64,000 bases of DNA from an uncultured Gammaproteobacteria bacterium (lineage in GTDB: Bacteria; Patescibacteriota; Microgenomatia; UBA10105; UBA927): the NCBI GenBank assembly GCA_964445435.1, contig CAYUKU010000001.1, positions 118,942-182,941 on the forward strand. The letters run 5' to 3'. Each line of letters starts with the position of its first letter. The first letter of the stretch is position 1. A program made the position numbers and the translations under genes. The notes beneath the pieces were generated by a model. That model saw only the letters and a list, made by a program, of their open reading frames with translations, made no database searches and was not told the DNA's origin. Below are positions 1,857 to 27,476 of the stretch, in pieces.

Positions 1857-2342
1857 TTATTGTCTCGTTGTCGATACGACTCCATACTTATTTACGCTAA
1901 TCGTCACGGAATTATTCAGCGATGTATCTTGGAGAACCACGGTGTCAGAATCAGGTGTATAACTGAGCACTTCTCCGCTTCCTCGAATAAATGTAACAGT
2001 ATTTCCGGGCACTGCAATTACTGAAAAACGCATTGACGAATCCAAAGGAACCACACGGTTTTCTGCATTTCCGCTGTCGTAGACGAGTCCCGGGAACACA
2101 ATGTACCGGTCCGACTCAAAACGTATCGACCGGTCAACGATTGATCCATCTGCCGGGGCGACTCCCTGCATCGCTTGAATCTGCGCCTCCCGCAAATCCC
2201 GCACAACCTGGCTGGATACCTCCGTAAGGGTAGCACTGCGCTGGCCGCGAAACAGCGTTTGCGTAGCCAACAGAAACATCGTTGTTACCAAAAAACCGAC
2301 AACAACAATTTCCGCGAGCGTAAAACCCCCTGTATGTTTCAT
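1857..2342 (-). CDS. Pseudopilin / type IV pilin-like protein (prepilin N-terminal methylation motif GFTLAEIVVV)
   Basis: ORF 1857..2354; N-terminus MKHTGGFTLAEIVVVGFLV is a canonical prepilin peptidase cleavage/methylation site plus hydrophobic helix; likely start at the MKHT Met. Confidence 0.65.
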   Translation of the reverse strand: MKHTGGFTLAEIVVVGFLVTTMFLLATQTLFRGQRSATLTEVSSQVVRDLREAQIQAMQGVAPADGSIVDRSIRFESDRYIVFPGLVYDSGNAENRVVPLDSSMRFSVIAVPGNTVTFIRGSGEVLSYTPDSDTVVLQDTSLNNSVTISVNKYGVVSTTRQ

Positions 2343-2350
2343 GGCGTTTG

Positions 2351-4567
2351 TCATTCAACTGCCGAGTGAACTATTCCCAACCCTTCTGATGCGTATTTTT
2401 TCTGCAGTGACTCAAGTCTCGCGGGAGTAAATACGGGCAGCGTAAAACTGAAGGTCGCACCTTTTCCTGTGCCCTCCGATTCGGCTTTGACGTGCCCTCC
2501 GTGCATTTCAATAATCGATCTGCTTATGTATAGCCCCAAGCCAGTGCTTTGGGATGCGTGCATTTTATCTGACGAGGAGAGAGTCGAAAATTTCTTAAAA
2601 AGCTTCTGCCCATCCTGTGCAGTAAACCCGATGCCGGTATCAGTAACGCTGATAACAAGAGCCTCTCCCTTGGGGTGCGCATCAAGCGTTACCGTGCCCC
2701 CTTTGGGCGTAAATTTAATCGCGTTGGTCAAGAAATTGATAAGCACTTCTTTTACTTTATCCCTATCGGCGATAACGTCAGCAAGGCCGCTTCGAACGTT
2801 TGATACAAACACCAGCCCCTGCTCTTCAAACTTGGGCTGTACTTCGGCAACTGCTTCATCCACAAGTTGGGATACGGAGGTTCTTTCAAATTGCATGGCG
2901 AGCCGTCCTGATTCTATCCTGGAAATATTGAGCATATCGTTGACAAGCGCGATGAGCCGATTCGTTGAGATGAATGACCGATCCAGATAAAATTTTTGTT
3001 TTTCAGTAAGATCTCCCCCTTTGTTGGATAGCGCCATCCATAAATACGAGCGGATGGATGTGAGTGGTGCCCGCAGCTCGTGGGATGCCAATGAGACAAA
3101 TTCATCTTTCAGCTTATCCAGTTCTTTCAGACGGATATTTGCCTGACGCAAATCTTCCGTTGCACGATCAACTTCCTTCTGAAGCGTTATGCTGAATCTG
3201 CGGATTTCTTCATACGCAAGCGCATTTTGGATGGCAACCGCAGATTCCGGTGCAAAGATCTCCAGAAGCGATACGTCTTGAAACGAGTAAATATCCCCAG
3301 AAGATTTCGGCCCAAGAATAAGAAGCCCTATGAGGACTCCTTCCGTGCGCATCGGAACGACAATTGAGGCGCCCAGGGCACCAAGCGCCTGCGTGAGCAC
3401 TCCCGTCTCGAGATCATCGACATTCAGAATCGCCCTCGCGCCCGCAAGAAGCTTCATATCTTCTTCGTCTACCGTGGGAAACGGGTGATACCCCTGACTT
3501 AGTACGTCAGTAACTACGCCATCGCGCATGAGAACAAACGCTCCCCGGCTAATGCGAAGGTCAGCAAGAAGAATATCAAGAAGGCCGTGGGAAAGATCCT
3601 CGAGTCGCAGAGTGGAGGCCATCACGTGACTGAGTGCTCCCAATACGTCATTCGTCACGTACCGTCCCTTGAAAAACACCCGATCCGTGAGACGCTCCAC
3701 CATATGCCGTATGCGCTGAAACAGAAGGCTAATAACGACGGTAAGCAGGATGAGGGTCACCTGCTCACTCCGGGTAAAACTGATATTGAGAAACAAACGG
3801 CTTGCCGCTGATATCGTCAAAGAAAAACCCACCGCGATAATCGCAATCAGAATCGTATACACGACGATCCGAACGACCAGAACGTTAATATCCAAAAACC
3901 GATGCCGCACCATGGCATAACTGATACATCCCACAAAAACGAGCGTATAGAGGGGTAGAAGCCCGACGAATGCGGTGTTGTTAAATACGACAACGAAAAC
4001 AAGATTCGTGATCAAAAGCGAGAGAAACATAAATATGGTCCCAACCAGGAAAAACCGGGTCTGCGTTTTTTCGATCCCGCGGCTTTTACGAAACCGCGAT
4101 ACGAGCCAAAGAAAACCTCCCCCCAAGTACACAATCGTGTGGAGCAAAAATGCGCCCATACCGATACCCGGCGTCGACTGGATGGCGCCGTTTTTTAGAC
4201 TCACGGAAGAAAAAATAAGATCTGTCTGGGTCATGGGAACAAGAAGCGCGCTTACTAACACTGACGCCCACAAAATGAGCGGTTTCGTGCGGATTCTCGA
4301 AGAAGGAAACGTATCCACCAGCAAATAGAAAAGCACATTAATCCCAATCGCGTTGGTCATCACAAGTCGCACCCAAAACGCGGCCCCCGCATCGGTAGTT
4401 TGATGTGTCGCCGTGTAATTAAACGCGATATATAGAGCCAACACAAAGGTGAAGGAGAAAAACAACTTCCCCGTGGCGCTCTTGGGATTCTTAAGAAGCG
4501 TGAACAATCCCAGAAATATATTGCCGAGCGTAGCAATAACAACACTCACCAATTCCAGAGCAGGCAT
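2351..4567 (-). CDS. Membrane-bound sensor histidine kinase (multi-TM N-terminal sensor, HisKA + HATPase_c)
   Basis: About 8 predicted TM helices in the N-terminal half; H-box SHELRAPLTSIRSY; ATP-binding G-boxes DTGIGF and GLGLYISRSII; same strand and abutting the pseudopilin genes. Confidence 0.85.
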   Translation of the reverse strand: MPALELVSVVIATLGNIFLGLFTLLKNPKSATGKLFFSFTFVLALYIAFNYTATHQTTDAGAAFWVRLVMTNAIGINVLFYLLVDTFPSSRIRTKPLILWASVLVSALLVPMTQTDLIFSSVSLKNGAIQSTPGIGMGAFLLHTIVYLGGGFLWLVSRFRKSRGIEKTQTRFFLVGTIFMFLSLLITNLVFVVVFNNTAFVGLLPLYTLVFVGCISYAMVRHRFLDINVLVVRIVVYTILIAIIAVGFSLTISAASRLFLNISFTRSEQVTLILLTVVISLLFQRIRHMVERLTDRVFFKGRYVTNDVLGALSHVMASTLRLEDLSHGLLDILLADLRISRGAFVLMRDGVVTDVLSQGYHPFPTVDEEDMKLLAGARAILNVDDLETGVLTQALGALGASIVVPMRTEGVLIGLLILGPKSSGDIYSFQDVSLLEIFAPESAVAIQNALAYEEIRRFSITLQKEVDRATEDLRQANIRLKELDKLKDEFVSLASHELRAPLTSIRSYLWMALSNKGGDLTEKQKFYLDRSFISTNRLIALVNDMLNISRIESGRLAMQFERTSVSQLVDEAVAEVQPKFEEQGLVFVSNVRSGLADVIADRDKVKEVLINFLTNAIKFTPKGGTVTLDAHPKGEALVISVTDTGIGFTAQDGQKLFKKFSTLSSSDKMHASQSTGLGLYISRSIIEMHGGHVKAESEGTGKGATFSFTLPVFTPARLESLQKKYASEGLGIVHSAVE

Positions 4568-4585: not shown

Positions 4586-5542
4586 TTACGGGAGACCTAA
4601 TTGCCTGCTGATTCTGCGACGAAGTTTTCTAACCTGCGGGTCGTCACTGATACGGCCGGAAGAAAAAAACGCGTCCATATCAAAAACATATCGCCCGCTT
4701 TTCACCGGCTCTCCCAGGATAATCCGCTTGATGGTCGTTGCGACCAATCCTCCCGCAACCGTGGCGGTTGACCCAAGCTGCGGCCAGGTGGCGATGGTCT
4801 CTCCGATAGACAGAAGCGATGAAAGCATGAGCGCACTATTATGCTCAAGTCCGACGAGCTGAATAACGAGCTTTGCTTTCTGTGCCCGCGAGAGCACGTT
4901 GAAGCGAATCGATTCAACGTGCGGCAGTCGCCCCAAAAAATATCGCGGGACGGGCTTCTGGTCATACCGTTCAACGTCAAGGAAAACATTGTCCCCAACG
5001 TCAACCGCGGAAATAAGCGGGATAGACAGCGCGTGTGCAATCCGTCTGAGCACAAGCTTTCCTTCGATGTCATCGATCTCATCGACGATGCAGGAAACCC
5101 GCGGCGCACGAAGACAGAAACGCTCCATCGAGCGAGGATCCGTCTTCGTCAGCACGAATAGCTTCGCATGCGGAAGCATGTCAGAAATCAGTTGAGTTAC
5201 GACATCTGTTTTCGCGTGCCCGATCTTGGACCAGCCGACACATATCCGGTTGAGATTCGTAGGGGCAATCGTGTCGGGATCAGCGAGCTTGATACATCGC
5301 GCACGGGAAAGGATGGCCCACGTTTCTGCCGCATGGCTGCCTACCGATAATCCGAAAAATGCAACCGTTGTATTGGCAAGACGCTGCTGCTGGCCGTCGT
5401 CTATCAACTGTCTGTTGCGGGCGGTCGATAATTCAAACAGCGGATCTCCTTTTCCTGACCCCGTGCGCCTTTGGAAGAACGGAAGTTCCGTTCCCCATTC
5501 TTGGGAGACATAAAGTCGCTGTTTCTTCGTTAACGGTTTCAT
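4586..5542 (-). CDS. ThiF/MoeB/E1-like family protein with degenerate nucleotide-binding loop
   Basis: Motif VAFFGLSVGSHAAETWAILSRARCIKLADPDTIAPTNLNRI parallels the ThiF Rossmann/SNLNRQ region (GLSVGS replaces GAGGLGS); last gene of a 3-gene overlapping operon. Confidence 0.5.
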   Translation of the reverse strand: MKPLTKKQRLYVSQEWGTELPFFQRRTGSGKGDPLFELSTARNRQLIDDGQQQRLANTTVAFFGLSVGSHAAETWAILSRARCIKLADPDTIAPTNLNRICVGWSKIGHAKTDVVTQLISDMLPHAKLFVLTKTDPRSMERFCLRAPRVSCIVDEIDDIEGKLVLRRIAHALSIPLISAVDVGDNVFLDVERYDQKPVPRYFLGRLPHVESIRFNVLSRAQKAKLVIQLVGLEHNSALMLSSLLSIGETIATWPQLGSTATVAGGLVATTIKRIILGEPVKSGRYVFDMDAFFSSGRISDDPQVRKLRRRISRQLGLP

Positions 5543-7008
5543 TAACTGGTTTTCTTCACGACTCCAAGGGGGAAATATGTCGTCTTCCCAAACTCACAGA
5601 GCTCGATTTTGGGTTCGGCTTTCTTCCCCATTGTTTTGAGAACAAACCGATACTCGCTATTTATACGGGTCACTTCGCGCATAAACGCTTCCCGTATCTG
5701 TTCCTTCAGTTTCCGGTCACGGGCATGATTCGGGGCGGTTTCAACGCGAACGATAAGAATAGGGTTTTGCTTCGCATCATATGACGTTTCCAGAAGGAAC
5801 CGTCCCGTCAGGTATCTTTGAAGTGTGGGGTGGTCAACCACCTGCTGCACGTGCTCGGTATAGATATTCGCGCCGTATATCTTTGCCATGAATTTTTCTC
5901 TCCCGAAAAGATATACAAACGGAAGCTCCCAGGGAAAAGTGATCTCTGACTGCATCAGTCTTCTGTCACCCGCCTTTTCCCATAAATGCCCGAAAGGAAG
6001 AACGCCACCTTTGTCGTGGATGTTATACCGGATAAGTGGTGCTCCACTGTCTTTCGTAACACATAATTCTTCGTCTACTGCTTCAAAATACGTATACCGG
6101 GGATCATACTGATACAGTGACGGCAACCGGTCGCTTCCGAAATAACTTCGCGCGGTGCCTTGCCGGTCGATGGTTTTCCGAATCGCTATGCTTACCGGGG
6201 TCTCATGCCCCATAAGTGACGCGTCTGCCGATCCATAGAGGTTAATAATGGTCCTCAACGGATCACGCCCTCCCACAAGAGAACTCACGTACGAACGCCA
6301 GGATTCCGTAATCCCCTGACCGGTCCCTAAAAACTTAATGATTACGCGCTTCTCGAGTCTCTTCTCATGGATTGCCTCTGCAATCTCTTTCAGAAACGGT
6401 GCATGACCGGTAATTATTGTTTGATCGAACCGAGGGGAAATATCAGCAAGAATCCGAAGAATTGCCTCCCGATCGTACCCCGGCGTCATCATGGTAAGCG
6501 GGTAGTCTTTCCAGGATACGAGTGCTATTGATGTAAAGGTAAATGTTCCTGCAATCCAATTGCCCAAGGCAAATCCGTTCACGAACAGCGTCGAGTGGTG
6601 TTTAATATCAAAAATATTCTGCAGGAAAAACTCATGTACCGCTGCGCCGTCAAGATCATGTCTGAGAGAACGCGGCCAATAATGCGGCTGTCCTGTCGTC
6701 CCGGAACTCGTGGAAATCATGTTTGCGCCGGAAAGCTTCCCCTCCCATGAACGGGAAGATGCATCATACACGGAAACATAATTCTCCTTCGTTGTTTGCG
6801 GAACGTCCCGGAAGTCAGCAAATCGCGCAATTCGAGAAGGATGCAACTTGTGCTTCTGAAGAAAATCGGCATAAGCAGGGACGCTCTTTGCAGCGCGGTG
6901 AAACAGACCAAGCGCCCTTTTCTGGCTTTCACGTTCAATATGCGCAGTGCTCCCGTTTCCACTTCGGGCAAACCACGCACGCATCAGTAATGCATGTTCC
7001 CGCTGCAT
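5542..7008 (-). CDS. Adenylate-forming enzyme, PaaK/coenzyme F390 synthetase/GH3-like (ANL superfamily)
   Basis: P-loop-like ISTSSGTTGQPHYW matches the SSGTTG(K/Q)P adenylation motif of phenylacetate-CoA ligase-like enzymes; start overlaps stop of upstream HAL-like gene by 1 bp context (7011/7008) and its stop overlaps start of ThiF-like gene (5542). Confidence 0.6.
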   Translation of the reverse strand: MQREHALLMRAWFARSGNGSTAHIERESQKRALGLFHRAAKSVPAYADFLQKHKLHPSRIARFADFRDVPQTTKENYVSVYDASSRSWEGKLSGANMISTSSGTTGQPHYWPRSLRHDLDGAAVHEFFLQNIFDIKHHSTLFVNGFALGNWIAGTFTFTSIALVSWKDYPLTMMTPGYDREAILRILADISPRFDQTIITGHAPFLKEIAEAIHEKRLEKRVIIKFLGTGQGITESWRSYVSSLVGGRDPLRTIINLYGSADASLMGHETPVSIAIRKTIDRQGTARSYFGSDRLPSLYQYDPRYTYFEAVDEELCVTKDSGAPLIRYNIHDKGGVLPFGHLWEKAGDRRLMQSEITFPWELPFVYLFGREKFMAKIYGANIYTEHVQQVVDHPTLQRYLTGRFLLETSYDAKQNPILIVRVETAPNHARDRKLKEQIREAFMREVTRINSEYRFVLKTMGKKAEPKIELCEFGKTTYFPLGVVKKTS

Positions 7009-7010
7009 AG

Positions 7011-8678
7011 TTACGGCAACCCGGAAAATACATTTGTTCGAAGAAGCGCATTTACCTCGCCAGTCGCAATAGTGGACGCGATCTTTTCTATATCCGGAGC
7101 AAGCGAACGCTCTTTACCAACATAGGCAACCCGTGACCTGACGAATTCATACACCGGACGTGTCCGCGGTGCAAGAAGGTCCGGCCCCCCGCGCAAATCG
7201 ACAGCCTGACAAACCGCAATAAGCATCATTGCAAGGGAATAGCGCAACACTTCTAAATTCTGCCATGCAAGTATTGCTGAAGTCAGCGAATGCACGGTGA
7301 TATCCTGATTGGACTCTTCATGAATTCCAAACAGCGTCGTCACCGGTTGCGCAAGAGTCATCGAATAGACATCAAACATGCCTGATTCAAGCTGTATTCC
7401 CTTAAACGCACACGATGAGATCGCCTTGGGATCAGAGAGATTCGGGGGCAAGCCGTTGTTTTCATGCGGACTGACCAGTCGATGGAGGTGTCTGTCGTTT
7501 CTTTTGATAAACCTCGTTATCATCTTGCGCATCATGTCGATTGACTCTCCCATATGTTGCGCCAAAAAATTTCCGCCGCTCACCCATTGCCATGGTTCTT
7601 CGCCGGGTGTCGTGCGCGGCGGATCTATCCATAAGGGATTGTCAGAAACTGAATTTGCGTTTGTTTCGATAGTGCTAAGGATCCATTGGAGTAATTCCCT
7701 ATTTACTCCTTCTGCCTGCGAAATGCATCGAAGACTGTATGCGTCCTGCACTTTCACTCCAGATGGTCGCAACACATGACCTTTCATCTCCTGATAGGCA
7801 AGCTTACTTCCAGAAAGAAGCATCGCGTATGTTTGAGCGACTTCTTTCTGACCCGGGTGCGCGCGCACTTGTGAAAGAAACGGGTGAAATGATCTATTCG
7901 TACCTTTGAGTACTTCAACAACCATAGCACCCACTACATCCTCAATAAGTGTATAAGCAATGACATCTGCGGCAATCAGAGCAGCGGCTGCAGTAGAAAA
8001 ATTATCTCCATTGACGAACGCCAATCCCGCTTTGGGCTCCAATACCAGTGCCGGAATCTTGTGTTTCCGAAGAAGATATCGGGCTTCATATTTCTTTCCC
8101 CTACTATCGCGTGCAGCAACACCGGGTATCTGACGGATCGCTGAAAGAACCCGAGCGTTGTGGGCAAGATCTCCTGAAGCTCCCAATCCTCCGTATGCAT
8201 GAACCACCGGAGTAATCCCGGCATTCAGCACACGCCGATAAATATCCAGATCAGAAAGCCTTACTGCAGACACGCCGTTTAAGAGCATGTTCATGCGTAT
8301 AAGCATTGCCCCGCGCGTCACTTCGGAGGCAAGCTCAGGGCCAACAGTTACGTCCGTGTGGATGATGCTCTCTGAGATTGATCTTGCTTGCGCGAGACGC
8401 TCGGCGGCCGACCCTTTGTTCAGAATCGTCTGTGCCCGCGCACCGAATCCGGTATTGCATCCGTATATCGGAATACCGCGCTTCACCTGGTCAATCATCT
8501 GAACATAACTTGCCTGCATTCGTCCCCGCACCCTCCGATCGCGGGTAAATGAAACGGGGATAACACTTCGTGCGCCCGCAACGATTTGCGAAAAGGTGAG
8601 AGACGATCCCGATAGGAGGATGTTTTGTGGCGTTTGGGCAACGAGTCGATCAACAATAAATAGTCGTGTATCGTTCAT
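7011..8678 (-). CDS. MIO-dependent aromatic amino acid ammonia-lyase/aminomutase family (HAL/PAL/TAM-like)
   Basis: GGLGASGDLAHNARVLSA contains the Ala-Ser-Gly triad that forms the MIO cofactor in its conserved context (G-x-x-ASGDL-x-x-LS-x-A); CNTGFGA motif near N-terminus typical of the family. Confidence 0.75.
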   Translation of the reverse strand: MNDTRLFIVDRLVAQTPQNILLSGSSLTFSQIVAGARSVIPVSFTRDRRVRGRMQASYVQMIDQVKRGIPIYGCNTGFGARAQTILNKGSAAERLAQARSISESIIHTDVTVGPELASEVTRGAMLIRMNMLLNGVSAVRLSDLDIYRRVLNAGITPVVHAYGGLGASGDLAHNARVLSAIRQIPGVAARDSRGKKYEARYLLRKHKIPALVLEPKAGLAFVNGDNFSTAAAALIAADVIAYTLIEDVVGAMVVEVLKGTNRSFHPFLSQVRAHPGQKEVAQTYAMLLSGSKLAYQEMKGHVLRPSGVKVQDAYSLRCISQAEGVNRELLQWILSTIETNANSVSDNPLWIDPPRTTPGEEPWQWVSGGNFLAQHMGESIDMMRKMITRFIKRNDRHLHRLVSPHENNGLPPNLSDPKAISSCAFKGIQLESGMFDVYSMTLAQPVTTLFGIHEESNQDITVHSLTSAILAWQNLEVLRYSLAMMLIAVCQAVDLRGGPDLLAPRTRPVYEFVRSRVAYVGKERSLAPDIEKIASTIATGEVNALLRTNVFSGLP

Positions 8679-8765: not shown

Positions 8766-9164
8766 ATGACACAGCGGCTTCTCATAGTCGATGACGATCC
8801 GTTTATCCGCGATTTGTACGAAGAAGTCTTTAAAGGAGAAGGCTTTGAGGTTACAACGGCAGAAAACGGCGAACTTGGCTTGTCACATTTGAAAAACGGA
8901 GGGTATGACGCAGTCCTTTTGGATATCATGATGCCGAAACTGGATGGCTTGGGCGTTCTCACAAGTCTTAAGGAAAATCCCCCCGATCAACCCAATGGAC
9001 CAATCATTCTTCTCACCAACCTGGATCATGATCCGATGGTAGAAAAAGCCAAATCACAGGGTGCCTATTCTTACGTACTGAAAGCGGATGTGCTTCCTCC
9101 CCAACTGGTTGCAAGCGTGAGGGAGGCAATAGAATCCTCTAAAACTCGCCAACCTGACCGATAA
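8766..9164 (+). CDS. Stand-alone response regulator receiver domain protein (CheY-like)
   Basis: LLIVDDDPFIRDLY...LLDIMMPKLDG...YVLK receiver signature (phospho-Asp in LLDIMMP, conserved K). ORF track starts at 8730; MTQRLLIVDD Met at 8766 is the more plausible start. Confidence 0.8.
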   Translation: MTQRLLIVDDDPFIRDLYEEVFKGEGFEVTTAENGELGLSHLKNGGYDAVLLDIMMPKLDGLGVLTSLKENPPDQPNGPIILLTNLDHDPMVEKAKSQGAYSYVLKADVLPPQLVASVREAIESSKTRQPDR

Positions 9165-10197
9165 GGTTATAGATAGGCGCGATGATTGCCATCATCATGC
9201 CTCCGACAACAACACCGACCATTACCAGGATGATGGGCTCAAGAAGCGTCATAAGATACTGCAGGGTCGTGGAAACCTGATAGTCGAAGTACTCCGCAAG
9301 GTCTGACATCGATTTATCCAATGATCCGCTTCGCTCGCCGACCTCGATAATTTTCACCATAAGAGATGGAATGGCCCTTTGCCCCCGCAGACCGTCTGCC
9401 AGGCGCTTGCCGCTTGCGACGTACTCGCGGGCCCGGATAATTGCCTCCCGAACCTCCCCTTTTACGGCAACGGCCTGTGTTAATTCAAGGGCGCTATACA
9501 GAGGAATCGCTGAAGCAAGAAGAAGATACATGCTTCGGGAGAATCTCGTCAAATCAATTTGCCGGGCAATCGAAGACACGTATGGAAGATTGAGCATAAC
9601 GTTCACGAACAGTTTCCGCTGCTTTCTGTAAAGCAAAATTAGGATACCAATGACAAGGAAAGAAACCACGAGTGTTGGAATTGTATAGTGAAGAATGAGA
9701 TTTGAAACGGCAATCAAAATACGTGTCGGAAGCGGAAGCGTCACTTTCAGCCGCAAAAAAACATCGGCAATCTTGGGAATCACGAACGTCAACAACAGCG
9801 CCAACACCCCAAGAAACACAACGACGATAACGGCGGGGTATGTAAGCGCGGATCGGATTTTATCGCTGAATTCGATATCTTTTTTTATGGTGTTTTTTAC
9901 GTCCTTAAGAACGACGTCTATCGTTCCGGATTCTTCGCTTGCCTTGATAATCGCCACGGTAACTGAGTCAAAGACTCTCGGAAATTTGGAAAGCGCGCTA
10001 TGAAGCGGCTTTCCTTGATTGATATCTTCGGCAATGCCCTTAAGAACTATGCGCATATTGCCGGTTGAATCCTCGAGCATCGACTCAACTGCTTCAGCAA
10101 GCGTTAAGCCCCGTTCACCATCGTTGACAGATTGGACAACAGTCCGAGCTTTTCTGAATTTGGAAGCCAGATTGACGCGGATTTCATATGGATTCAA
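9139..10197 (-). CDS. pilC: Type IV pilus / T2SS inner-membrane platform protein (PilC/GspF family)
   Basis: 352 aa, two T2SSF-type cytoplasmic domains separated by TM helices, C-terminal LIGQVG-like motif; overlaps pilB stop by 14 bp. Confidence 0.8.
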   Translation of the reverse strand: MNPYEIRVNLASKFRKARTVVQSVNDGERGLTLAEAVESMLEDSTGNMRIVLKGIAEDINQGKPLHSALSKFPRVFDSVTVAIIKASEESGTIDVVLKDVKNTIKKDIEFSDKIRSALTYPAVIVVVFLGVLALLLTFVIPKIADVFLRLKVTLPLPTRILIAVSNLILHYTIPTLVVSFLVIGILILLYRKQRKLFVNVMLNLPYVSSIARQIDLTRFSRSMYLLLASAIPLYSALELTQAVAVKGEVREAIIRAREYVASGKRLADGLRGQRAIPSLMVKIIEVGERSGSLDKSMSDLAEYFDYQVSTTLQYLMTLLEPIILVMVGVVVGGMMMAIIAPIYNLIGQVGEF

Positions 10198-11899
10198 CCT
10201 TTGTGACTCTCAAAATCTCCTCGATAGTCGTAATTCCTTTGGAAACTTTCTGAAGTCCGTCATCAAGCATGGTCATCATGCCTTCTTCTATAGCCTTTTG
10301 AGCGATCATATCGCTATCCTTTCGTTCCGTAATGAGCTTGCGGATTTCTTTGGACACTTCCAAAATTTCAAAAATTCCGACCCTTCCTGCATACCCCGTG
10401 AAATGGCAGTTTTTACATCCCTGCCCCTTATACACCCTGATTTCCTTATTGGCGCCCGAAGGAATGTAGTGTTTCGCAATGACTGCAGCAGGCAAACTTT
10501 TTTGCAGTTCTGCCTCCGTGATCGTTGTTGACACACGGCAGTAGTCGCAAATTTTCCGCACCAAACGTTGAGCGATGATAAGATTCACGCTTGAGGCCAC
10601 CAAAAACGGTTCGATATGCATGTCGGTTAGTCTGGGAAGCGAGGTGGCAGCATCGTTCGTGTGCAGCGTGGAAACGACCAGATGTCCTGTTAGTGCTGCG
10701 TTGATCGCAATTCCGGCGGTTTCCGAATCCCGAATTTCTCCTACAAAAATGATATTGGGATCCTGTCTCAAAATTGACCGCAATCCGCTTGCAAATGTGA
10801 GGTTCGTTTTCGGGTTCACCTGAATTTGATTGACTCCCTTCACACGGTACTCTACGGGATCTTCGATGGTTGTAATGTTTTTCTCCCGCACGTTAAGCGT
10901 TTTAAGCATCGCGTAAATAGATGTCGTTTTTCCGCTCCCCGTCGGACCGGTCGAAAGAATCATCCCATAGGATCTGTGAAGCGCCGCAGTCACCTTCGCC
11001 ACAGCATCTTCCTCCATGCCCAAATCTGCGAAGCTAAACACGCGGAAATGGGAAACCAATAACCGCATCACCACTTTTTCTCCTTCTACCATTGGGATTA
11101 TGGAAATGCGGATGTCCACCGATTCGTCTTCATATCTGATACGCATCTTTCCGTCCTGCGGAGCCAAGTGTTCATCGGTACGAAGATTGGCCAATACCTT
11201 AATGCGGCTGACCACCTGACTATGGAGCACCTTTGAGAAATGCAGCACGTCATGAAGGATGCCGTCGATTCGGTAGCGAACGAGTGAATCCGTTTCTCCT
11301 GGCTCGATGTGAATATCTGAGGCAGTTTCGTCAACCGCGCTATGCAAAAGCAGATCTACAATTGCCGATACCGGTGCCTCATCTTCCCGTTTATATTTCT
11401 TCAGAAGTTCGTCGAATAACGTCTGCACGTCGCGTTTATGAAGCTGCAAGGCGTTACGAATGTCGCGCTCTGTGGCGTAATACACTGCAACACGCTGCTG
11501 GGTCTTTTTCTCCATCGCGGCAACAACCTGCTTATCACTGGGATCAGCCATTGCTACCTTCACGCCTTCGGCGTCGCGGGCAAATGGAACAATCTTGTGG
11601 ATACGGGCAAACTTATCGGGAACGAGACGGTAAACCGCGTCCGAAATGCTTATATCGGCAAGGTTGACAAAGGGCACGCCCAAAGAAGATGCGATAAGTT
11701 TTCCTAAATTTCCGTCGGTGATTATGTTCTTTTGAAGAAGAGCCTCTGAAAGAGGTATCCCTGCTGACTTGGCGTATTCAACGCCCGCCTGAAGCTCAGC
11801 TTCGGTAAGCACCCGGCCGTCTGTTATGATCTGTTTCAATTCGTCATCGCTCATCCCCATAGGCAGTAAGCGCAACCACACTTGCGCTTCTTCTATCAT
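10184..11899 (-). CDS. pilB: Type IV pilus assembly ATPase (PilB/GspE family)
   Basis: N-terminal GSPII_E_N-like region, Walker A LSTGPTGSGKTT, Asp/His boxes, tetracysteine motif CDYC...CKNC typical of GspE/PilB; ORF track start 11995 includes implausible leader, MIEEAQ Met at 11899 preferred. Confidence 0.88.
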   Translation of the reverse strand: MIEEAQVWLRLLPMGMSDDELKQIITDGRVLTEAELQAGVEYAKSAGIPLSEALLQKNIITDGNLGKLIASSLGVPFVNLADISISDAVYRLVPDKFARIHKIVPFARDAEGVKVAMADPSDKQVVAAMEKKTQQRVAVYYATERDIRNALQLHKRDVQTLFDELLKKYKREDEAPVSAIVDLLLHSAVDETASDIHIEPGETDSLVRYRIDGILHDVLHFSKVLHSQVVSRIKVLANLRTDEHLAPQDGKMRIRYEDESVDIRISIIPMVEGEKVVMRLLVSHFRVFSFADLGMEEDAVAKVTAALHRSYGMILSTGPTGSGKTTSIYAMLKTLNVREKNITTIEDPVEYRVKGVNQIQVNPKTNLTFASGLRSILRQDPNIIFVGEIRDSETAGIAINAALTGHLVVSTLHTNDAATSLPRLTDMHIEPFLVASSVNLIIAQRLVRKICDYCRVSTTITEAELQKSLPAAVIAKHYIPSGANKEIRVYKGQGCKNCHFTGYAGRVGIFEILEVSKEIRKLITERKDSDMIAQKAIEEGMMTMLDDGLQKVSKGITTIEEILRVTKVESI

Positions 11900-11975
11900 A
11901 AGGGAAATCACACAACTGAAACAATACGATTGACAAGTTTCACCCGGTTTCTTTATGCTAGAAGAAGGAGGAAGT

Positions 11976-12119
11976 ATGAAAAAATCTGCCCGCAAACATC
12001 ATCACGCAAAAAAAGCGAAACACCCGAGTGAAAGCGTGATTATTCAGTTTGGAGTCGCATTTATCGTGGTTGCCGGATTTGCGCTCCTCATGTATACGGT
12101 GAAGTATTTCCTCCCGTAA
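11976..12119 (+). CDS. Small (47 aa) tail-anchored membrane protein, hypothetical
   Basis: Strong SD (GAAGGAGGAAGT) 5 nt upstream of ATG; basic His/Lys-rich N-terminus then single TM helix (VIIQFGVAFIVVAGFALLMY); below ORF-track size cut-off; sits in gap between pilB and rpoD. Confidence 0.35.
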   Translation: MKKSARKHHHAKKAKHPSESVIIQFGVAFIVVAGFALLMYTVKYFLP

Positions 12120-18007: not shown

Positions 18008-19570
18008 TCACGGCGCATATCGGTACATGCGATAGGTGTGACCGTTTTGTCCGTAAAGCGGCGGCAACTGTGATAGAAAACGATTGCCAAGTTGCTGGGA
18101 AAACTGGGAAACAAACGGATCAATGCATTTAACCCTATATGACATTTCGTTCTCCCACTGACTCCCCAGATTGTTGATGCACGTCAAATAGATTACTGCG
18201 TCTGGTTCTATGGGTGGCAACGAAAAACTATTGGCCCCCTCCTCTATCGCTACGATCTTCGTTTTGCGTATATCCTCAAGGAATAACCACTGCGGTGATG
18301 CATTTCCGATATACCGCCACGAGTCAGGGCGATCACTTAAATAATTTGCGTAAAATTTCGTGGGAGCATCCTCAAGCGCACGCACGGTTACCTGATAATG
18401 ATCTTTATAATTGCCGCCTGCTGGTCCGAAATACCTCATATTACCCGCTCCTAACAATATTCCTGTCACGCCGACGAAACCCAGAAGAATCGCTCTATTC
18501 CGAACGAACACAGCACTGTAATAACTAAGAATAAAAAGAAAAACGACAGACGCAACCTTGAGATAGTGCGCGGGCAACGGCGCTCCCCCCTCCTGCCGAT
18601 AGACGCCATACATCAAAATGACGGCAAACAAAGCGAGCATGTCTGGAGTCCATTTCTTCCCGGTGCGGGTGCGAAACGCCAGAAGAAAGAGCGCAATGAC
18701 GACACCAAGATATACCCAAGAAACGCTGCCGGGAAACTGCGGGATCAGTGTATACACGCTTTGCCATGCACGAAGGGGAAACGTGAGAAAGGAAAACGTG
18801 CCCCCCTGCACCGCTACAAGATCAAAATACCGCCGAACTACATGTATATCATTCTTCGTAACAAGCGCCCAAAGGAATACATGCACCGAGATGATTGTGA
18901 AAAAAATAATTGCTCTTCTGGGGCTCCGGATATAGCGCCATGCAACCCACACCAAACCTACGACGAAAAACGGTAAGAAAGACTGGTGAATGTGCACACC
19001 GAAAAATAACGACGTGACAAACGCGATCATCGACCAGTGACTGCTCTTCAGCGCAAAAAGCGCCATAAAAAACAAAGAGATGAGGGTATTAACTGGCATA
19101 AAACACGTCTGACAAATGCCATGCGCGTCCCGGATCAACAACGAACTGATGCCTATGAAAAACGAAAATATCAATCCCGTTCGTATCCCTCCCATCAGTA
19201 ATCCTGCGCCATACGCAAGTCCTATGGCGGCTGCATTGGTCAAAGCAAAAAACATGCCCATACCAAGTGCGGATCGGGAAACAAGCCACATTCCTGCCAA
19301 AATCCAGTAAAACACCGGCGAATTGTTTATCAAACCTCCTGCGCCGAACGCGTACGGAGCCGTCCGGAATCCTTCATCGAATTCAACAATATGCTTCGCC
19401 ACCAAAATGTCCCGGGCGTGATCCCCGTCTATTTCCATGAAATCAGAAAACCGATACACCCGAAGAAACAAACCGACCAAAAGAATAACGACTAACCACA
19501 CACGAGACGCGCGTCTTGCGGTTGGCATGAAGGAATCCGGCTTCAACACATTATTACTGACAGACATGTT
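18008..19570 (-). CDS. GT39/ArnT-like membrane glycosyltransferase (dolichyl/undecaprenyl-phosphate sugar dependent family)
   Basis: Polytopic (more than 10 TM) with N-terminal RVYRF...DGDHARD...AGGLINNSP region resembling GT-C PMT/ArnT family; ORF track start 19666 would overlap upstream gene by 112 bp, so an internal Met (about 19570 or 19528) is likelier. Confidence 0.6.
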   Translation of the reverse strand, partial: NMSVSNNVLKPDSFMPTARRASRVWLVVILLVGLFLRVYRFSDFMEIDGDHARDILVAKHIVEFDEGFRTAPYAFGAGGLINNSPVFYWILAGMWLVSRSALGMGMFFALTNAAAIGLAYGAGLLMGGIRTGLIFSFFIGISSLLIRDAHGICQTCFMPVNTLISLFFMALFALKSSHWSMIAFVTSLFFGVHIHQSFLPFFVVGLVWVAWRYIRSPRRAIIFFTIISVHVFLWALVTKNDIHVVRRYFDLVAVQGGTFSFLTFPLRAWQSVYTLIPQFPGSVSWVYLGVVIALFLLAFRTRTGKKWTPDMLALFAVILMYGVYRQEGGAPLPAHYLKVASVVFLFILSYYSAVFVRNRAILLGFVGVTGILLGAGNMRYFGPAGGNYKDHYQVTVRALEDAPTKFYANYLSDRPDSWRYIGNASPQWLFLEDIRKTKIVAIEEGANSFSLPPIEPDAVIYLTCINNLGSQWENEMSYRVKCIDPFVSQFSQQLGNRFLSQLPPLYGQNGHTYRMYRYAP

Positions 19571-20627
19571 TTCCTGTTTCGTTCGCAGCACAGATAGCAT
19601 CAAGCGCTTGTCCGACCACTTGGGCAACGAACGCATTGCCCTTCTCGGAATAATGACCGGCTGCACCGAAATACGGCACGGCTCCTTCTGCGATGAAATA
19701 TGCGTCTATGTCACTTTTCTTGATGTCAAATAAAGAACTCCCCACGTCTATAACCTCAAATCCCTTCTCTTTCCCCACTGCCTCGACGAAAGACCGCATG
19801 TTTTCATAATTCGTGTGGTCGTAATAATCTTCTAAGGTAGGAAGCATAACAGCTATAAACCGGGCGCCTCGTTCGCGGGTCAAATCAGCCATGGCAGTAG
19901 TAATCGCGACAACAAGGGGCGCCTCCTCAGATCCCAAAAAAACCGCGTCTCTTCCTGCTTTCTTGCCAAACGTTCTAAATAATCGCACGGTCGCAAGCTT
20001 CATCATCGACTTCTCATGAATGAGAGCAAATCGTTTGAGTTCATTCGGACGGGGTGCCGGGATATTCGTTTCCACAAGCTTTCCGTCAACCACTTTTAGT
20101 ATGGGCTTGCCGTACCCGATGAAATCTGTGAGAGACGCGCGATATAAACCTCCTGTGAAAAACGCTGCCAGGTGTACGTCATGCTGTATCTTCGCAGCGC
20201 CGATTTTGTACCAGAGGTAGCTCTGATCCAGGCCATACCCTCCCTGACCCATGTTGACGGTATGCCACCCAAACGAAGTGAGGCCGGCGCACCACGCATC
20301 AAGATCATCGACTCCGTACCCGAGCGTTAAGGAATCACCCGAACAAATAAGGCCTGGTTTGGCATCCCTGGTTCGGGAGGTAAGACGCGTTCCGTCATCG
20401 AGAATGGTCATATTCTTCCCCGGACCGTACACATCTTTTATAACTGCGCCCGGACGGTTCACCCACCCGATAATCGGATCGTATTTTGTGTGCCTGTTTT
20501 CCGCAACCACTCCTTCTTTTACGAAAGCACGAAAAAAAGCCGCCCAACTCATCGTTCCCTCAAAAACGAGAAGCAGAAAGGCAGCAATGACAATATTTGC
20601 TATAACAAGAGATAGAAAACGAATCAT
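19554..20627 (-). CDS. SGNH/GDSL-type hydrolase with N-terminal TM anchor
   Basis: GDSL block LICSGDSLTLGYG; single N-terminal TM; family commonly does O-acetylation/deacetylation of cell-wall glycans. Confidence 0.6.
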   Translation of the reverse strand: MIRFLSLVIANIVIAAFLLLVFEGTMSWAAFFRAFVKEGVVAENRHTKYDPIIGWVNRPGAVIKDVYGPGKNMTILDDGTRLTSRTRDAKPGLICSGDSLTLGYGVDDLDAWCAGLTSFGWHTVNMGQGGYGLDQSYLWYKIGAAKIQHDVHLAAFFTGGLYRASLTDFIGYGKPILKVVDGKLVETNIPAPRPNELKRFALIHEKSMMKLATVRLFRTFGKKAGRDAVFLGSEEAPLVVAITTAMADLTRERGARFIAVMLPTLEDYYDHTNYENMRSFVEAVGKEKGFEVIDVGSSLFDIKKSDIDAYFIAEGAVPYFGAAGHYSEKGNAFVAQVVGQALDAICAANETGKHVCQ

Positions 20628-20696: not shown

Positions 20697-21977
20697 TCAA
20701 TGAAAAATACTTATATTCTTTTCCTTGGCGAACTCGAGGGTACGCTGTATATTTGCCTGCTCGCTTAAGTTTCCGGGACAGTCAAGCATATTGCCATTGG
20801 CGGTATAGCAACGGCGAAACTCTTCACGGGCTTCATATTCGTCTTTGGCAAATCGCAATACATCACCGTAGTGCGCTACCGAAACAAACACGTAAAGAGT
20901 AATCGTTACTCCCACAGCTGCATTCCTTAGTCTGAGAGGCATGGAATACAGCAGCATATAGAGCCCGAAATAGAAAGGAATAAATAACGTTGCGTATCTG
21001 GAATTTTTCGCCAAGTCAAATCCTAAAGGAATGCGGTTGTAAGACAGGGCGGCCGTCAATAATACTGAAAACAACACTAAGGAAAAAACAACGTAGCCCT
21101 GTATTTTCGCTTTGAAGAATAATAAGATCGTAGACGCTCCGAGAGAAAAAAGCATGAGGGAAGGTAAAATGCCACTCCACAATGCAACATCCTGATACCC
21201 GACAGTCGCATTGATCAAATGCGCAGCAAATGCGATGTAGTCACCAATTGTCAGCAAAACTCTATCCTTGTCCTGAAGGGGAGAAAAATCATATCCCCAG
21301 AAATACGTCACTGCAAGCATAAAACTCACTCCTGCGAGGACCAGAGAGAGGATACGACGTGACCCATGCGTAAACGCTTCAAACAGAAAAAATCCCATAA
21401 TGAAAAAGCTCACGAGGAGTCCTTGAGCAGAGGAGACAGTGCCCAGAAAACACAAAAGAAGCAATGCACCATCTCTAAACATGCCAGGTTGAACGGTAAA
21501 AAGATATAAAGCGGCCAAAAAAATGGGTAAAAATATCGTGAAGGTAATCTGATACCCCCACGTCAAATTTTCCCATTGGTATACAGAAAAGAATATAAAA
21601 GGAATAATAAGATCCCACACCACGAGTGACCCTCTCAGCCGTTCCATGACCATCAGCGCAAGTACACACGAAACGGCAAGTGTGAGCCAAACCAAATACG
21701 CCCCAATCCTCAGATCCCAATGAAAGAAAGGACCAATGGTATCCAGCATTAGCAATCCCAGCCCGACCCGATGTTCGTTCTGCTGCGCGCGGAATATCGC
21801 CCACACGGGCCAATTTTCCATCTTCATCTCAATGATCTGCCATGAGTCATACCAGGGCACGGAAGACGTATAAGAAAGCGTAACGTATAAACTCAAGAAA
21901 CCAAAAAGAAGAAACGAGACGAATATGGCTACCTGCTTCCATTTATCAATCCCGACCTGTAAAAAGAAGCTCCTCAT
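20697..21977 (-). CDS. Polytopic membrane protein (about 12 TM), hypothetical; possibly glycan polymerase/GT-C-like
   Basis: 426 aa almost entirely hydrophobic helices; located with the GT39-like and SGNH genes. Confidence 0.5.
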   Translation of the reverse strand: MRSFFLQVGIDKWKQVAIFVSFLLFGFLSLYVTLSYTSSVPWYDSWQIIEMKMENWPVWAIFRAQQNEHRVGLGLLMLDTIGPFFHWDLRIGAYLVWLTLAVSCVLALMVMERLRGSLVVWDLIIPFIFFSVYQWENLTWGYQITFTIFLPIFLAALYLFTVQPGMFRDGALLLLCFLGTVSSAQGLLVSFFIMGFFLFEAFTHGSRRILSLVLAGVSFMLAVTYFWGYDFSPLQDKDRVLLTIGDYIAFAAHLINATVGYQDVALWSGILPSLMLFSLGASTILLFFKAKIQGYVVFSLVLFSVLLTAALSYNRIPLGFDLAKNSRYATLFIPFYFGLYMLLYSMPLRLRNAAVGVTITLYVFVSVAHYGDVLRFAKDEYEAREEFRRCYTANGNMLDCPGNLSEQANIQRTLEFAKEKNISIFH

Positions 21978-22111: not shown

Positions 22112-22202
22112 TGGCGGAGAGGGAGGGATTCGAACCCTCGATCACCTTGCGGCGATACGCGCTCTCCAAGCGCGCGCACTAGACCAACTATGCGACCTCT
22201 CC
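22112..22202 (-). tRNA. tRNA-Ser (anticodon GGA), type II with long variable arm, CCA encoded
   Basis: Hand-folded: GGAGAGG acceptor, anticodon loop TTGGAGA (GGA), long variable arm, T-arm GGTTCGAATCC, 3' GCCA. Confidence 0.85.
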
Positions 22203-22284
22203 TGCCTTATCGGTAGGCCGCCAATGAGGCGGCCCGTGTTCGTCATTATACCATCCGGATGGTCACTCGGTGCTATACTAAACT

Positions 22285-23196
22285 ATGTCGTCTCGGAAAA
22301 TAGCCCTCATTACTCTTGTTCTTGCGTCGGCCTTCTGGTCTTCAGGCGGAGTGGCGGCCAAAGCGCTTCTTAAAACATTTGACCCTCTATCCGTCGGTGC
22401 CATCCGGCTTACCCTGGCATCTATCCTCATTCTTCCTCTCTTTCTTCACGTCACGCCGAAAATCACAAAAAAACTTGTTCTGGACATTCTCCCGGTTTCT
22501 CTTTTTAGCACCGGCAATTTCATCCTCTTCCTTTTCGGAATCAACAAAACCACGGCCAATGCGTCTGCCATCATCTATACCGCTACCCCCATCACCGTTG
22601 CCATTCTCTCTCGCGCATTTATCGGAGAAGGAATCTCCCGGCAAAAAATCGGTGGTATTCTTCTGGGATTAACAGGCATTCTAACTATTCTTCTTCTTCC
22701 GCTTCTTGAGAAGGGTCAGATCGTCATTGGTGACGTTGGAGGAAATTTTACTATCGTGGGTGCCATGATTATGTTTGCGCTCTACAATGTCGGCACACGT
22801 CACCTTATCGCGGCCAAATCCTATGACCCTATTACCATCACCGGTATATCCGTGTTTGTTTCCGCGCTCTTTTTCAACCTTCTTCTTTTGGTTTTCCCAC
22901 ACAGGGGGACTATCGACTTACTTTTCGCTCCGTACAATCTCCTTTTTGCGTTCTATTTTGCAATCTTCGTGACCGTGGTGCCGTATGTCCTCCATCAGTG
23001 GGCGATTAAACACTCCTCGGCAACGACAGGCGCGCTTACCACGTATATCCAGCCCATCTTCGGCTTCGTCATCAACGGCATTCTTTTGGGCGAAGTGATA
23101 ACTGGGGGATTTTTGCTTGGAAGCATCCTGGTATTCGCCGGCACGTTTATGGCAACAGGCGCGCAAATGATGCGGATGCTACGGAAGAAAAACTAA
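22285..23196 (+). CDS. EamA/DMT superfamily transporter
   Basis: 303 aa, 10 TM helices in two repeated EamA-like halves. Confidence 0.8.
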   Translation: MSSRKIALITLVLASAFWSSGGVAAKALLKTFDPLSVGAIRLTLASILILPLFLHVTPKITKKLVLDILPVSLFSTGNFILFLFGINKTTANASAIIYTATPITVAILSRAFIGEGISRQKIGGILLGLTGILTILLLPLLEKGQIVIGDVGGNFTIVGAMIMFALYNVGTRHLIAAKSYDPITITGISVFVSALFFNLLLLVFPHRGTIDLLFAPYNLLFAFYFAIFVTVVPYVLHQWAIKHSSATTGALTTYIQPIFGFVINGILLGEVITGGFLLGSILVFAGTFMATGAQMMRMLRKKN

Positions 23197-23198
23197 CC

Positions 23199-23810
23199 TT
23201 ACCGGGCAAATTCTTCGTGAAGCGTTTTTCGAATACTCTCCCACCACCCTTGGGAACTGGACCGGGCGAGACTTTGTGCTAACTCTACGGCTTCAGGAAT
23301 GCGAATACGTTTGATGTTTGCATCTATCCACTCCTTCGCGTGAACGTTTCCTTTTTCGATGAGGAGCTTGAGTTCAACAGCAAACGCTATAACGTTTGCC
23401 TCATACACAATCCGTGCTTCGAGCGTTTGCTTCTGCTCGTATATATCAAGAGTGCGCAACAGTTCGTCATCAATCCCCTGGAAGATGTCACGGTTTGCCT
23501 TATCCTGGTCGCGGGTCATATAGAACTTGGCGATCTTATCGAGGTCTCCCGTACGCGCTTCGTGGAAATCATGAAACACGCTCATGACGAGAACCGTTTC
23601 CATATTTGCGTTAAGCTTCTTTGCCAGGAAATACGCAATCACGCAGGTCATGAAGGTGTGCTCTCCCACGCCCTCGTCATTGTCGCCCAAGATCATCCAA
23701 CCGGTACGTCGCATGCGCTTGACTGCGGCGGCTTCATAGATAAGGTTCGTGATGTCGGTAAGCTGTTTTTTGTCCATATGCGCCCCCAGGCGGACTTGAA
23801 CTGCCATCAC
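23199..23810 (-). CDS. HD-domain phosphohydrolase (YfbR-like 5'-deoxynucleotidase family)
   Basis: H...HD...D motif: HTFMTCVIAY ... SVFHDFHEARTGD. Confidence 0.75.
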   Translation of the reverse strand: MMAVQVRLGAHMDKKQLTDITNLIYEAAAVKRMRRTGWMILGDNDEGVGEHTFMTCVIAYFLAKKLNANMETVLVMSVFHDFHEARTGDLDKIAKFYMTRDQDKANRDIFQGIDDELLRTLDIYEQKQTLEARIVYEANVIAFAVELKLLIEKGNVHAKEWIDANIKRIRIPEAVELAQSLARSSSQGWWESIRKTLHEEFAR

Positions 23811-23907
23811 AGCCTCCGGAGGGCCGTGCTCTATCCAATTAAGCTATGGGGGCATTTACCCTATTATACCCCGAAAGGCCGGTGTGGTGCTACAATTTGA
23901 AGTAAAC

Positions 23908-26001: not shown

Positions 26002-26003
26002 TC

Positions 26004-26091: not shown

Positions 26092-26131
26092 CCTGCCTCT
26101 TGGGGCAGGTCGCCGATGAGGCGACCTTTTG

Positions 26132-26203: not shown

Positions 26204-26241
26204 GTGGCCCTATTATACCCTGAATCGGGAGATTAGAAAAA

Positions 26242-27475: not shown

Positions 27476-27476
27476 G

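Follow-up and report, generated by a model that had tools for sequence, protein, structure and literature searches.

In a 64,000-nt stretch of contig CAYUKU010000001.1, deposited under the name of an uncultured Gammaproteobacteria bacterium and called the window here, three consecutive minus-strand genes encode an enzyme of the family that depends on the 4-methylideneimidazole-5-one (MIO) cofactor, a divergent ligase resembling the PaaK family and a ThiF/E1-like protein. We propose that these genes are the enzymatic half of a module of the candidate phyla radiation (CPR, Patescibacteria), that a HisKA_7TM sensor histidine kinase and a receiver protein are its other half, and that the kinase senses an oxazolone-type product of the enzymes; we give this proposal about an even chance of being correct. 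Our literature searches returned no prior description of such a module, nor of oxazolone genes in CPR.

A gene cassette linked to a HisKA_7TM kinase

An earlier, sequence-only reading of the window had described a compact three-gene operon with ORFs (open reading frames) at 8678..7011, 7008..5542 and 5542..4586, and all three are present at these coordinates. Read directly from the sequence, the stop codon of the MIO gene (TAA) is followed by a 2-nt spacer and the ATG of the ligase gene, and the ligase stop and the ThiF start overlap as TAATG. Eighteen nucleotides separate the ThiF stop from the kinase gene (4567..2351, start ATG), whose stop in turn shares the letters ATGA with the start of the next ORF (1857..2354). 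Because of this short gap and overlap, the co-directional, translationally coupled array (intergenic gaps of 2, −1 and 18 nt) extends past the three genes. On the other side, a divergent receiver gene follows, which probably begins with the ATG at 8766, and the placement of the enzymes between a sensor kinase and a response regulator is therefore confirmed by Pfam matches on both flanks. Promoter- and terminator-like matches at the locus showed no excess over the shuffled expectation.

For the comparison across genomes we used 37 non-redundant CPR loci with the ligase, and the ligase homologues from Microgenomates-type genomes were 41-73% identical to that of the window. All 21 loci with a ligase at least 41% identical have the order MIO-ligase-ThiF(-oxidase)-HisKA_7TM kinase. 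All 37 loci have the kinase, 34 have ThiF and 16 the oxidase, the last being found in many metagenome loci as well, and a receiver-only protein (median 133 aa) accompanies them in at least 23. The conserved unit thus takes in the seven-transmembrane (7TM) kinase and the receiver, and in many relatives a flavin oxidase, so that the description as a three-gene operon was too narrow. A reciprocal scan of metagenomes with the 7TM sensor of the window kinase gave the same association: 24 of the 26 sensors with ≥33% identity have cassette genes directly upstream, as do 10 of the 42 more distant 7TM sensors. The link to the kinase is also retained in the rearranged loci L167-L169. Pilus genes, on the other hand, adjoin only about 11 of the 37 loci, and in one locus without them (L002) the kinase is kept next to the cassette; the kinase goes with the enzymes and not with the pilus genes, and the earlier name of 'pilus sensor kinase' is not borne out. 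Many of the assemblies with syntenic loci (L004, L006, L007, L011, L012 and similar) are titled 'uncultured Gammaproteobacteria bacterium', and these loci are 49-60% identical to Microgenomates loci; the Gammaproteobacteria labels of those bins are probably wrong.

The window kinase matches HisKA_7TM (PF16927, E 1e-10), GAF, HisKA (PF00512) and HATPase_c (PF02518), and the kinases have no conserved terminus and no conserved Cys. Within the sensor, conservation is lowest in GAF, which the cassette-linked kinases in L167 and L169 lack. The constant partner of the enzymes is the 7TM region, because the loci of two cassette fusion proteins (P0378 and P0272, described below) end in GAF-less HisKA_7TM kinases. 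We found no ligand described for the HisKA_7TM domain in the literature, where two papers of the census or review kind were all that named it. The receiver lacks a DNA-binding domain, which makes it unlikely that the two-component pair is merely a transcriptional regulator of the enzymes.

The first enzyme of the cassette differs between CPR lineages. In Saccharibacteria, Andersenbacteria and Nealsonbacteria, the ligase, ThiF and kinase genes are kept and the MIO gene is absent, and several MIO-less CPR lineages have instead a divergently oriented class I/II aminotransferase dependent on pyridoxal phosphate (PLP). A homology search with the ThiF protein returned CPR orthologues only, and a search of a representative library with the same protein returned fusions. 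These join ligase and ThiF (P0314, E 4e-92 to the window ligase), a Glu/Leu/Phe/Val-type (ELFV) amino-acid dehydrogenase, ligase and ThiF (P0378), ThiF and a MIO lyase with the Ser-His pair of the histidine ammonia-lyase (HAL) type (P0272), and ThiF, oxidase and an alpha/beta-hydrolase (P0389, hydrolase residues 756-1001). In Candidatus Roizmanbacteria GW2011_GWA2_37_7 (L041:2-3115, same contig as L092), an in-frame MIO-ligase ORF of 1038 aa with a shortened lyase C-terminal tail may be a real fusion or may come from a frameshift in the assembly. An alpha/beta-hydrolase gene also stands between cyclase and kinase in L167:9732-10607 and L168:4550-5425, and such a module-linked hydrolase might open or transfer an oxazolone ring. 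No acyltransferase was found among the conserved neighbours, in which the PaaK-like ligase is the constant partner.

Five HisKA_7TM kinase loci (L095, L097, L103, L111, L118) have a more distant ThiF and a nitroreductase-type gene upstream and no PaaK-like ligase. Because such ligase-less kinase loci exist, the minimal conserved core may be cyclase, oxidase and kinase.

The three enzymes

The ThiF-like protein matches PF00899 (E 1.7e-17) and its model has a ThiF/E1-like fold, in agreement with the earlier E1/ThiF-like assignment. Among the NCBIfam models, PRK07877 ('Rv1355c family') fits it best, with E 6e-52 and 176.8 bits over profile positions 87-344 of 722; no other ThiF, MoeB or TcdA model exceeds 37 bits. 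An Rv1355c-family protein from a Rhodococcus plasmid, annotated as ThiF-oxidase, is 31% identical over 249 aa (BLASTP E 1e-31) and has GLSVGS, NLNR, DVER(Y/F)D and TWPQLG in common with the window protein. Rv1355c is TrzS, an ATP-dependent oxazolone-forming cyclase (PMC12856293), and TyzB/TyzC (PMC10404671) and OxzB (PMC12596934; bioRxiv 10.1101/2020.06.11.147165) perform the same chemistry. For all of these, experiments have demonstrated the ATP-dependent synthesis of oxazolones from N-acyl aromatic amino acids (PMC12856293, PMC10404671, PMC12596934). To judge from its profile score and motifs, the window protein is a member of this oxazolone-synthetase subfamily of ThiF proteins.

The Gly-rich loop GLSVGS had been read as degenerate. 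However, the loop is invariant as G[LM]SVG[SN] in 34 of 34 CPR orthologues, it is the same in the Rv1355c-family protein, and the family member TrzS requires ATP (PMC12856293). The columns D88/D90, NLNR, K111 and D154/D157 are invariant or nearly so. We therefore rejected a degenerate, possibly inactive E1, since the loop is a signature of the subfamily and the other nucleotide-binding motifs are conserved. The features of canonical ThiF/MoeB/E1 proteins were not found: the sequence has no CxxC, the orthologues have no invariant Cys, and no small ThiS/MoaD/ubiquitin-like partner ORF is conserved. Foldseek returned generic E1/ThiF structures, including PaaA (5ff5) and MccB (3h5a), from the PDB, which holds no TrzS/OxzB structure. 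An anti-phage defence system was tried with PADLOC and rejected; the ThiF protein gave only domain-level matches to E1-E2 models of the Cap2 type from CBASS (cyclic-oligonucleotide-based anti-phage signalling systems; best E 1e-8), and the MIO enzyme and the ligase matched none of the PADLOC models.

In L002, a nitroreductase-superfamily gene next to ThiF fits the C-terminal half of PRK07877 (positions 372-719, E 1.5e-52), and in other orthologous loci the gene next to ThiF encodes a nitroreductase-superfamily protein of the Acg family, the closest structural relative of the TrzS oxidase domain (PMC12856293). Because the two proteins match the N- and C-terminal parts of one profile, ThiF and the adjacent flavin oxidase of these relatives are together a split TrzS. 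About 40 of the top 150 representatives, at ~690-780 aa and with the ThiF match at the N-terminus, have by length and match position the layout of a ThiF-oxidase fusion. Separately, two proteins that look actinobacterial (high GC; P0256, P0308) fuse a TrzS-type ThiF to a membrane region and a GGDEF diguanylate-cyclase domain, and on the Rhodococcus plasmid a GGDEF gene (L084:1874-2854) stands two genes upstream of the Rv1355c-family gene (L084:3884-6022). They are a second, independent tie of the cyclase family to signalling; genes of cyclic di-GMP (c-di-GMP) have been noted beside trzAS as well (PMC12856293).

The middle gene had been called a PaaK/GH3-like adenylating enzyme, of which the PaaK part stood and the GH3 part did not. 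The protein has no Pfam match at E ≤0.01 and matches only weakly the N-terminal part of PaaK (NCBIfam E about 1e-5; PDB 4r1l, E 0.003) and the FlxY model. Its AlphaFold2 model (pLDDT, the predicted local distance difference test, 89) had PaaK1 (2y27) as the best Foldseek match (E 1.5e-23, TM 0.70/0.79), followed by BT_0428 and then by NatL2, AjiA1 and ClxA, all entered in the PDB as AMP-ligases of the PaaK family that bind aromatic acids. We take NatL2, AjiA1 and ClxA to be benzoxazole-pathway enzymes that join aromatic acids without coenzyme A (CoA). The P-loop SSGTTGQP is present, and the motifs SSGTTG.P, YGSADA, RYN.HD.GG and FGR are kept in an alignment of 24 homologues. By its modelled fold, the protein is thus a PaaK-type adenylating enzyme. 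A GH3 acyl-acid amido synthetase was rejected, since no profile matched and no GH3 structure occurs among the top 50 Foldseek matches. It is also not a canonical PaaK of phenylacetate catabolism: the PaaK equivalog models give 21-24 bits against cutoffs of 646-700, and paa-type neighbours are not conserved in any of 83 ligase loci. Ligase homologues from outside CPR (46 loci; methanotrophs, myxobacteria, cyanobacteria, Chloroflexia) have no conserved neighbours and form a branch separate from the kinase-linked ligases.

The first gene encodes, as had been claimed, a MIO-cofactor enzyme. Its match to PF00221 spans profile positions 1-465 of 466 (E 6e-105, 352 bits, cutoff 27.3), and its nearest solved relatives are cyanobacterial phenylalanine ammonia-lyases (PAL). 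It scores far below every NCBIfam equivalog cutoff for HAL, PAL, tyrosine ammonia-lyase (TAL) and the aminomutases, with 260-292 bits for the lyase models, 207-218 bits for the mutase models and, for the HAL model TIGR01225, 259.5 bits vs a cutoff of 539; the FlxA and BagA TAL models are among the matches. We aligned the window protein and 21 orthologues with RsTAL, PpHAL and AvPAL, the reference sequences having been validated against the PDB (RsTAL 2o6y, P. putida HAL 1gkm). The active-site residues Y72, A167-S168-G169 (the MIO triad), N223, Y314, R317, N457 and Q458 are invariant in 22 of 22 sequences. So is His107, which corresponds to RsTAL His89 and is followed by T, V or I and not by Leu. 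This selectivity-switch position holds His in TAL and tyrosine aminomutase (TAM), a Phe-Leu pair in PAL and Ser-His in HAL. The inspection of the active site that the sequence-only reading had called for thus gave the pair H-T in the window protein, neither Ser-His nor Phe-Leu, and because His107 stands at the switch in all 22 sequences, the enzyme looks tyrosine-type (TAL or TAM). An ordinary hutH was rejected on the TIGR01225 score, the H-T pair and the lack of conserved hut-like neighbours; no related locus had hutU/hutI or paa catabolic genes in its set of conserved neighbours. Scores, selectivity residues and gene context together agree with the earlier expectation of a small-molecule pathway and not of histidine or phenylacetate catabolism. 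It had been taken for the front end of such a pathway, and it seems instead to be a short pathway that is complete in itself, of the oxazolone-synthetase type.

The proposed pathway and competing explanations

In the pathway we propose, the MIO enzyme would deaminate Tyr, or less probably another aromatic amino acid, and so yield an aryl-acrylic acid (p-coumarate, for example). The PaaK-family ligase would adenylate this acid and acylate an amino acid with it at the amino group, yielding an N-acyl amino acid and standing in for the acyl-CoA N-acyltransferase of the known oxazolone pathways. The ThiF-like protein would then adenylate the carboxylate and close the ring to a 5(4H)-oxazolone (azlactone), and in relatives with the flavin oxidase the substituent of the oxazolone ring would also be desaturated. 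The hydrophobic, labile product would act on the 7TM region of the kinase, the kinase would phosphorylate the CheY-like receiver, and the receiver would modulate the adjacent type IV pilus (PilB/PilC) by protein-protein contact. Since MIO lyase, PLP aminotransferase and NAD(P)-dependent dehydrogenase all strip an alpha-amino group, the simplest role common to them would be the supply of the carboxylic acid, and since no N-acyltransferase is conserved, the PaaK-type ligase is the best candidate for the maker of the N-acyl amino acid for a TrzS-type cyclase. By analogy with known systems, enzymes that feed the kinase a ligand seem more likely than a two-component pair that just regulates the enzyme genes.

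Several observations weigh against this pathway. A flavin oxidase of the nitroreductase superfamily is encoded nowhere in the 64-kb window, one is found in all characterised oxazolone pathways, and a saturated oxazolone would be short-lived; the window locus is an oxidase-less variant. Identity between the ligase and solved proteins of the PaaK family is only 15-17%, and the formation of an amide by the ligase is assumed. A role as CoA ligase is possible: HMG-CoA reductase is encoded at 41328-42833 (−; PF00368, E 4e-114) in a co-directional gene run (36048-42833), so CoA thioesters exist in the organism. For the same reason we dropped the argument that the ligase must be CoA-independent as CPR genomes lack CoA metabolism. 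The ligase family is not intrinsically tied to the pathway either, as its homologues outside CPR stand alone, and the MIO enzyme could be an aminomutase rather than a lyase. Finally, synteny gives functional linkage without direction, and the kinase could sense something else and merely be co-expressed.

Among other explanations, the adenylating and E1-like enzymes might act on a protein or peptide, for instance the kinase, a pilin or a small precursor, in the manner of E1/MccB/PaaA or of the thiazole/oxazole-modified microcins (TOMM). The ThiF model resembles the peptide-modifying PaaA and MccB, the tight linkage to one protein fits the kinase as the substrate, and pairs of E1-like proteins and nitroreductase-type dehydrogenases occur in azole-peptide pathways. 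We nevertheless consider this unlikely: no ubiquitin-like or precursor-peptide ORF is conserved and the genes leave only the gaps given above, no YcaO or other extra gene is conserved in ≥4 loci, the ThiF protein lacks a CxxC zinc motif and an invariant Cys, the kinase offers no conserved terminus or Cys, and the affinity of the ThiF protein is to a small-molecule cyclase family (176.8 vs ≤37 bits). A pathway resembling that of peptides made on ribosomes and modified after translation, of the TOMM type, was rejected, since there is no room for a precursor ORF and no YcaO or other conserved extra gene. Less likely still is a generic front end of secondary metabolism, in which the enzymes make an activated cinnamoyl or beta-amino acyl unit and the two-component genes are chance neighbours or pilus regulators. 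Pairs of MIO lyase and aryl-acid ligase do open many phenylpropanoid-type pathways, which the weak matches of the ligase to FlxY and PaaK and of the MIO enzyme to the FlxA and BagA TAL models recall. But in 37 + 33 loci neither a polyketide synthase nor a nonribosomal peptide synthetase nor any further gene of downstream biosynthesis is conserved. No neighbour is as constant as the kinase (37/37), which stays where pilus genes are missing (L002), in a reciprocal association that extends to rearranged and fused architectures.

A further reading is a catabolic or detoxifying operon, whose kinase would respond to an aromatic amino acid or a hydroxycinnamate that the enzymes then convert or neutralise. 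Genes for a hydratase, lyase, thiolase or ring cleavage are not conserved in the neighbourhood, a cyclase of the TrzS type plays no part in catabolism, the receiver without a DNA-binding output cannot alone induce the operon, and the replacement of the MIO enzyme by an aminotransferase or dehydrogenase elsewhere is a better fit to precursor supply. Thus, although a TAL and an aryl-CoA ligase could begin hydroxycinnamate degradation and the organism has CoA-dependent enzymes (HMG-CoA reductase), we regard such an operon as improbable. We find it highly improbable that the enzymes supply a chromophore, such as a styryl- or arylidene-oxazolone photopigment, to a light-sensing kinase that controls the pili, in a manner reminiscent of photoactive yellow protein (PYP). 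A TAL-like MIO enzyme and an aryl-acid ligase do stand beside a GAF-containing kinase, unsaturated oxazolones resemble the chromophore of the green fluorescent protein, and pilus-based phototaxis is known elsewhere. Against this, the kinase lacks a conserved Cys to which a chromophore could be covalently bound, its GAF domain is less conserved than the rest of the sensor and is missing from the L167 and L169 kinases, the MIO enzyme is absent from many module-bearing lineages, and the oxidase needed for full conjugation is not in the window. The specific form with a Cys-linked chromophore in GAF was rejected, as no Cys is conserved and GAF is dispensable in related loci.

The oxazolone pathway with the kinase as its sensor would matter for several reasons. 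The physiological role of bacterial oxazolones is described in the literature as unsettled, and the authors of the M. tuberculosis and Pseudoalteromonas studies suspect signalling and know of no receptor (PMC12856293; bioRxiv 10.1101/2020.06.11.147165). A cassette locked to one sensor-kinase family across dozens of divergent genomes, and in fusions, provides a concrete receptor candidate. It would also give the HisKA_7TM sensor domain a first class of ligand. Metabolically reduced CPR bacteria would then still invest three to four genes in a signal that probably governs type IV pili, the organelles of attachment and DNA uptake in CPR. A more tentative suggestion, which we hold to be possible but doubtful, is that CPR bacteria have a dedicated signalling system in which an amino-acid-derived oxazolone is the cognate ligand for the HisKA_7TM kinase and switches the pili, whether the signal is autocrine, quorum-like or passed between symbiont and host. 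If true, this would be the first receptor for an oxazolone natural product, the first ligand of the HisKA_7TM family and the first endogenous circuit of the autoinducer type in such ultra-small episymbionts. The module would also be a route to N-acyl amino acids and azlactones that is free of CoA-acyltransferases and has interchangeable precursor enzymes, and it may serve biocatalysis.

Neighbouring genes and comparison with known systems

The features of the locus are collected in Table 1. The ORF after the kinase has no Pfam match, and its homologues (cluster 9) adjoin pilin-like genes in 6 loci. The MshEN domain of the PilB-like ATPase is N-terminal (PF05157, E 1e-18); this domain binds c-di-GMP in other bacteria and could give a second regulatory input to the same pilus.

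Table 1. Features of the locus, with positions in the window
Feature	Position	Strand	Remarks
165-aa ORF, pilus-locus-associated	1857..2354	-	family not assigned by Pfam; overlaps kinase stop codon
Sensor histidine kinase, HisKA_7TM + GAF + HisKA + HATPase_c	2351..4567	-	738 aa; Pfam; proposed receptor of the pathway product
ThiF/E1-like protein, TrzS (Rv1355c)/OxzB cyclase subfamily	4586..5542	-	318 aa; PRK07877; proposed ATP-dependent cyclodehydratase
Divergent PaaK-family (ANL superfamily) adenylate-forming ligase	5542..7008	-	488 aa; fold and motifs; proposed ATP-dependent N-acyl-amino-acid synthetase
MIO-dependent enzyme, aromatic amino-acid ammonia-lyase/aminomutase family	7011..8678	-	555 aa; PF00221; tyrosine-type selectivity His107
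Stand-alone CheY-like response-regulator receiver	8766..9164	+	about 132 aa; PF00072, E 2e-24; divergent from the enzyme genes
Type IV pilus PilC-like protein (T2SSF)	9139-10197	-	Pfam
PilB-like ATPase with MshEN domain	10184-11995	-	Pfam

Elsewhere in the window, the gene run with HMG-CoA reductase suggests a mevalonate pathway. Genes resembling those of conjugation or type IV secretion, at 52706-54892 (−), 57294-59216 (+) and 59220-61535 (+), encode a TrwB/TraG-type coupling protein, a VirB4/TraG P-loop ATPase and a large protein with an M23 peptidase domain, and may belong to an integrated mobile element or a DNA-transfer apparatus. Large ORFs without a Pfam domain at E ≤1e-5, one of them of 1423 aa, lie at 47807-52078 (−), 18008-19666, 20697-21977 and 29945-31762. 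Six tRNA genes for Ser (4) or Arg (2) occupy about 5.5 kb (22112-27564), all on the minus strand, and two of the Ser tRNAs abut directly at 27385-27564.

Among known systems, the closest for the cyclase are the oxazolone synthetases TrzA/TrzS (Rv1356c/Rv1355c) and TyzA/TyzB/TyzC of M. tuberculosis and OxzA/OxzB of Pseudoalteromonas rubra. The module shares with them a ThiF-like ATP-dependent cyclase of the same subfamily, an adjacent nitroreductase/Acg-type flavin oxidase in many orthologous loci (not in the window), and the form of a short, self-contained pathway from aromatic amino-acid-derived precursors. It differs in that the window module has a PaaK-family ligase in place of the acyl-CoA N-acyltransferase, an extra deaminating enzyme (MIO lyase, aminotransferase or dehydrogenase) that supplies the acid, and no oxidase, in that its host is a CPR bacterium and not a member of Actinomycetota or Proteobacteria, and in its obligate link to a HisKA_7TM kinase and a receiver, which is not reported for the known systems. 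Because two defining parts, the acyltransferase and the oxidase, were looked for and not found in the window, the module taken as a whole does not belong to the OxzAB/TyzACB/TrzAS type. For the ligase, NatL2, AjiA1, ClxA and PaaK share the fold and adenylation motifs, and enzymes of the NatL2 type join the adenylate of an aromatic acid to another molecule on the way to an oxazole-type ring, with no use of CoA; the window ligase differs from these in its low identity (15-17%) and in having neither paa genes nor an amidohydrolase partner beside it.

The arrangement of enzymes beside a sensor has parallels of its own. In the pyp-tal-pcl locus of PYP, a TAL and an aryl-acid ligase stand beside the sensory protein that uses their product as its p-coumaroyl chromophore, much as a TAL-like enzyme and an aryl-acid adenylating ligase stand next to a sensory protein here. 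However, the PYP ligase is of the 4-coumarate-CoA-ligase type and not PaaK, that locus has no ThiF cyclase, and the chromophore of PYP is thioester-linked to a conserved Cys that the kinase here does not have. In CqsA/CqsS of Vibrio cholerae and LuxM/LuxN of Vibrio harveyi, a synthase gene lies beside that of a kinase with multiple transmembrane helices and no large periplasmic domain, and the hydrophobic signal is built from precursors of primary metabolism. Their enzymes and chemistry are unrelated to those described here, and the kinase here is not a hybrid and is paired with a stand-alone receiver instead of the LuxU/LuxO relay. What the module has in common with them is that small-molecule synthesis genes stand directly beside a polytopic histidine kinase.

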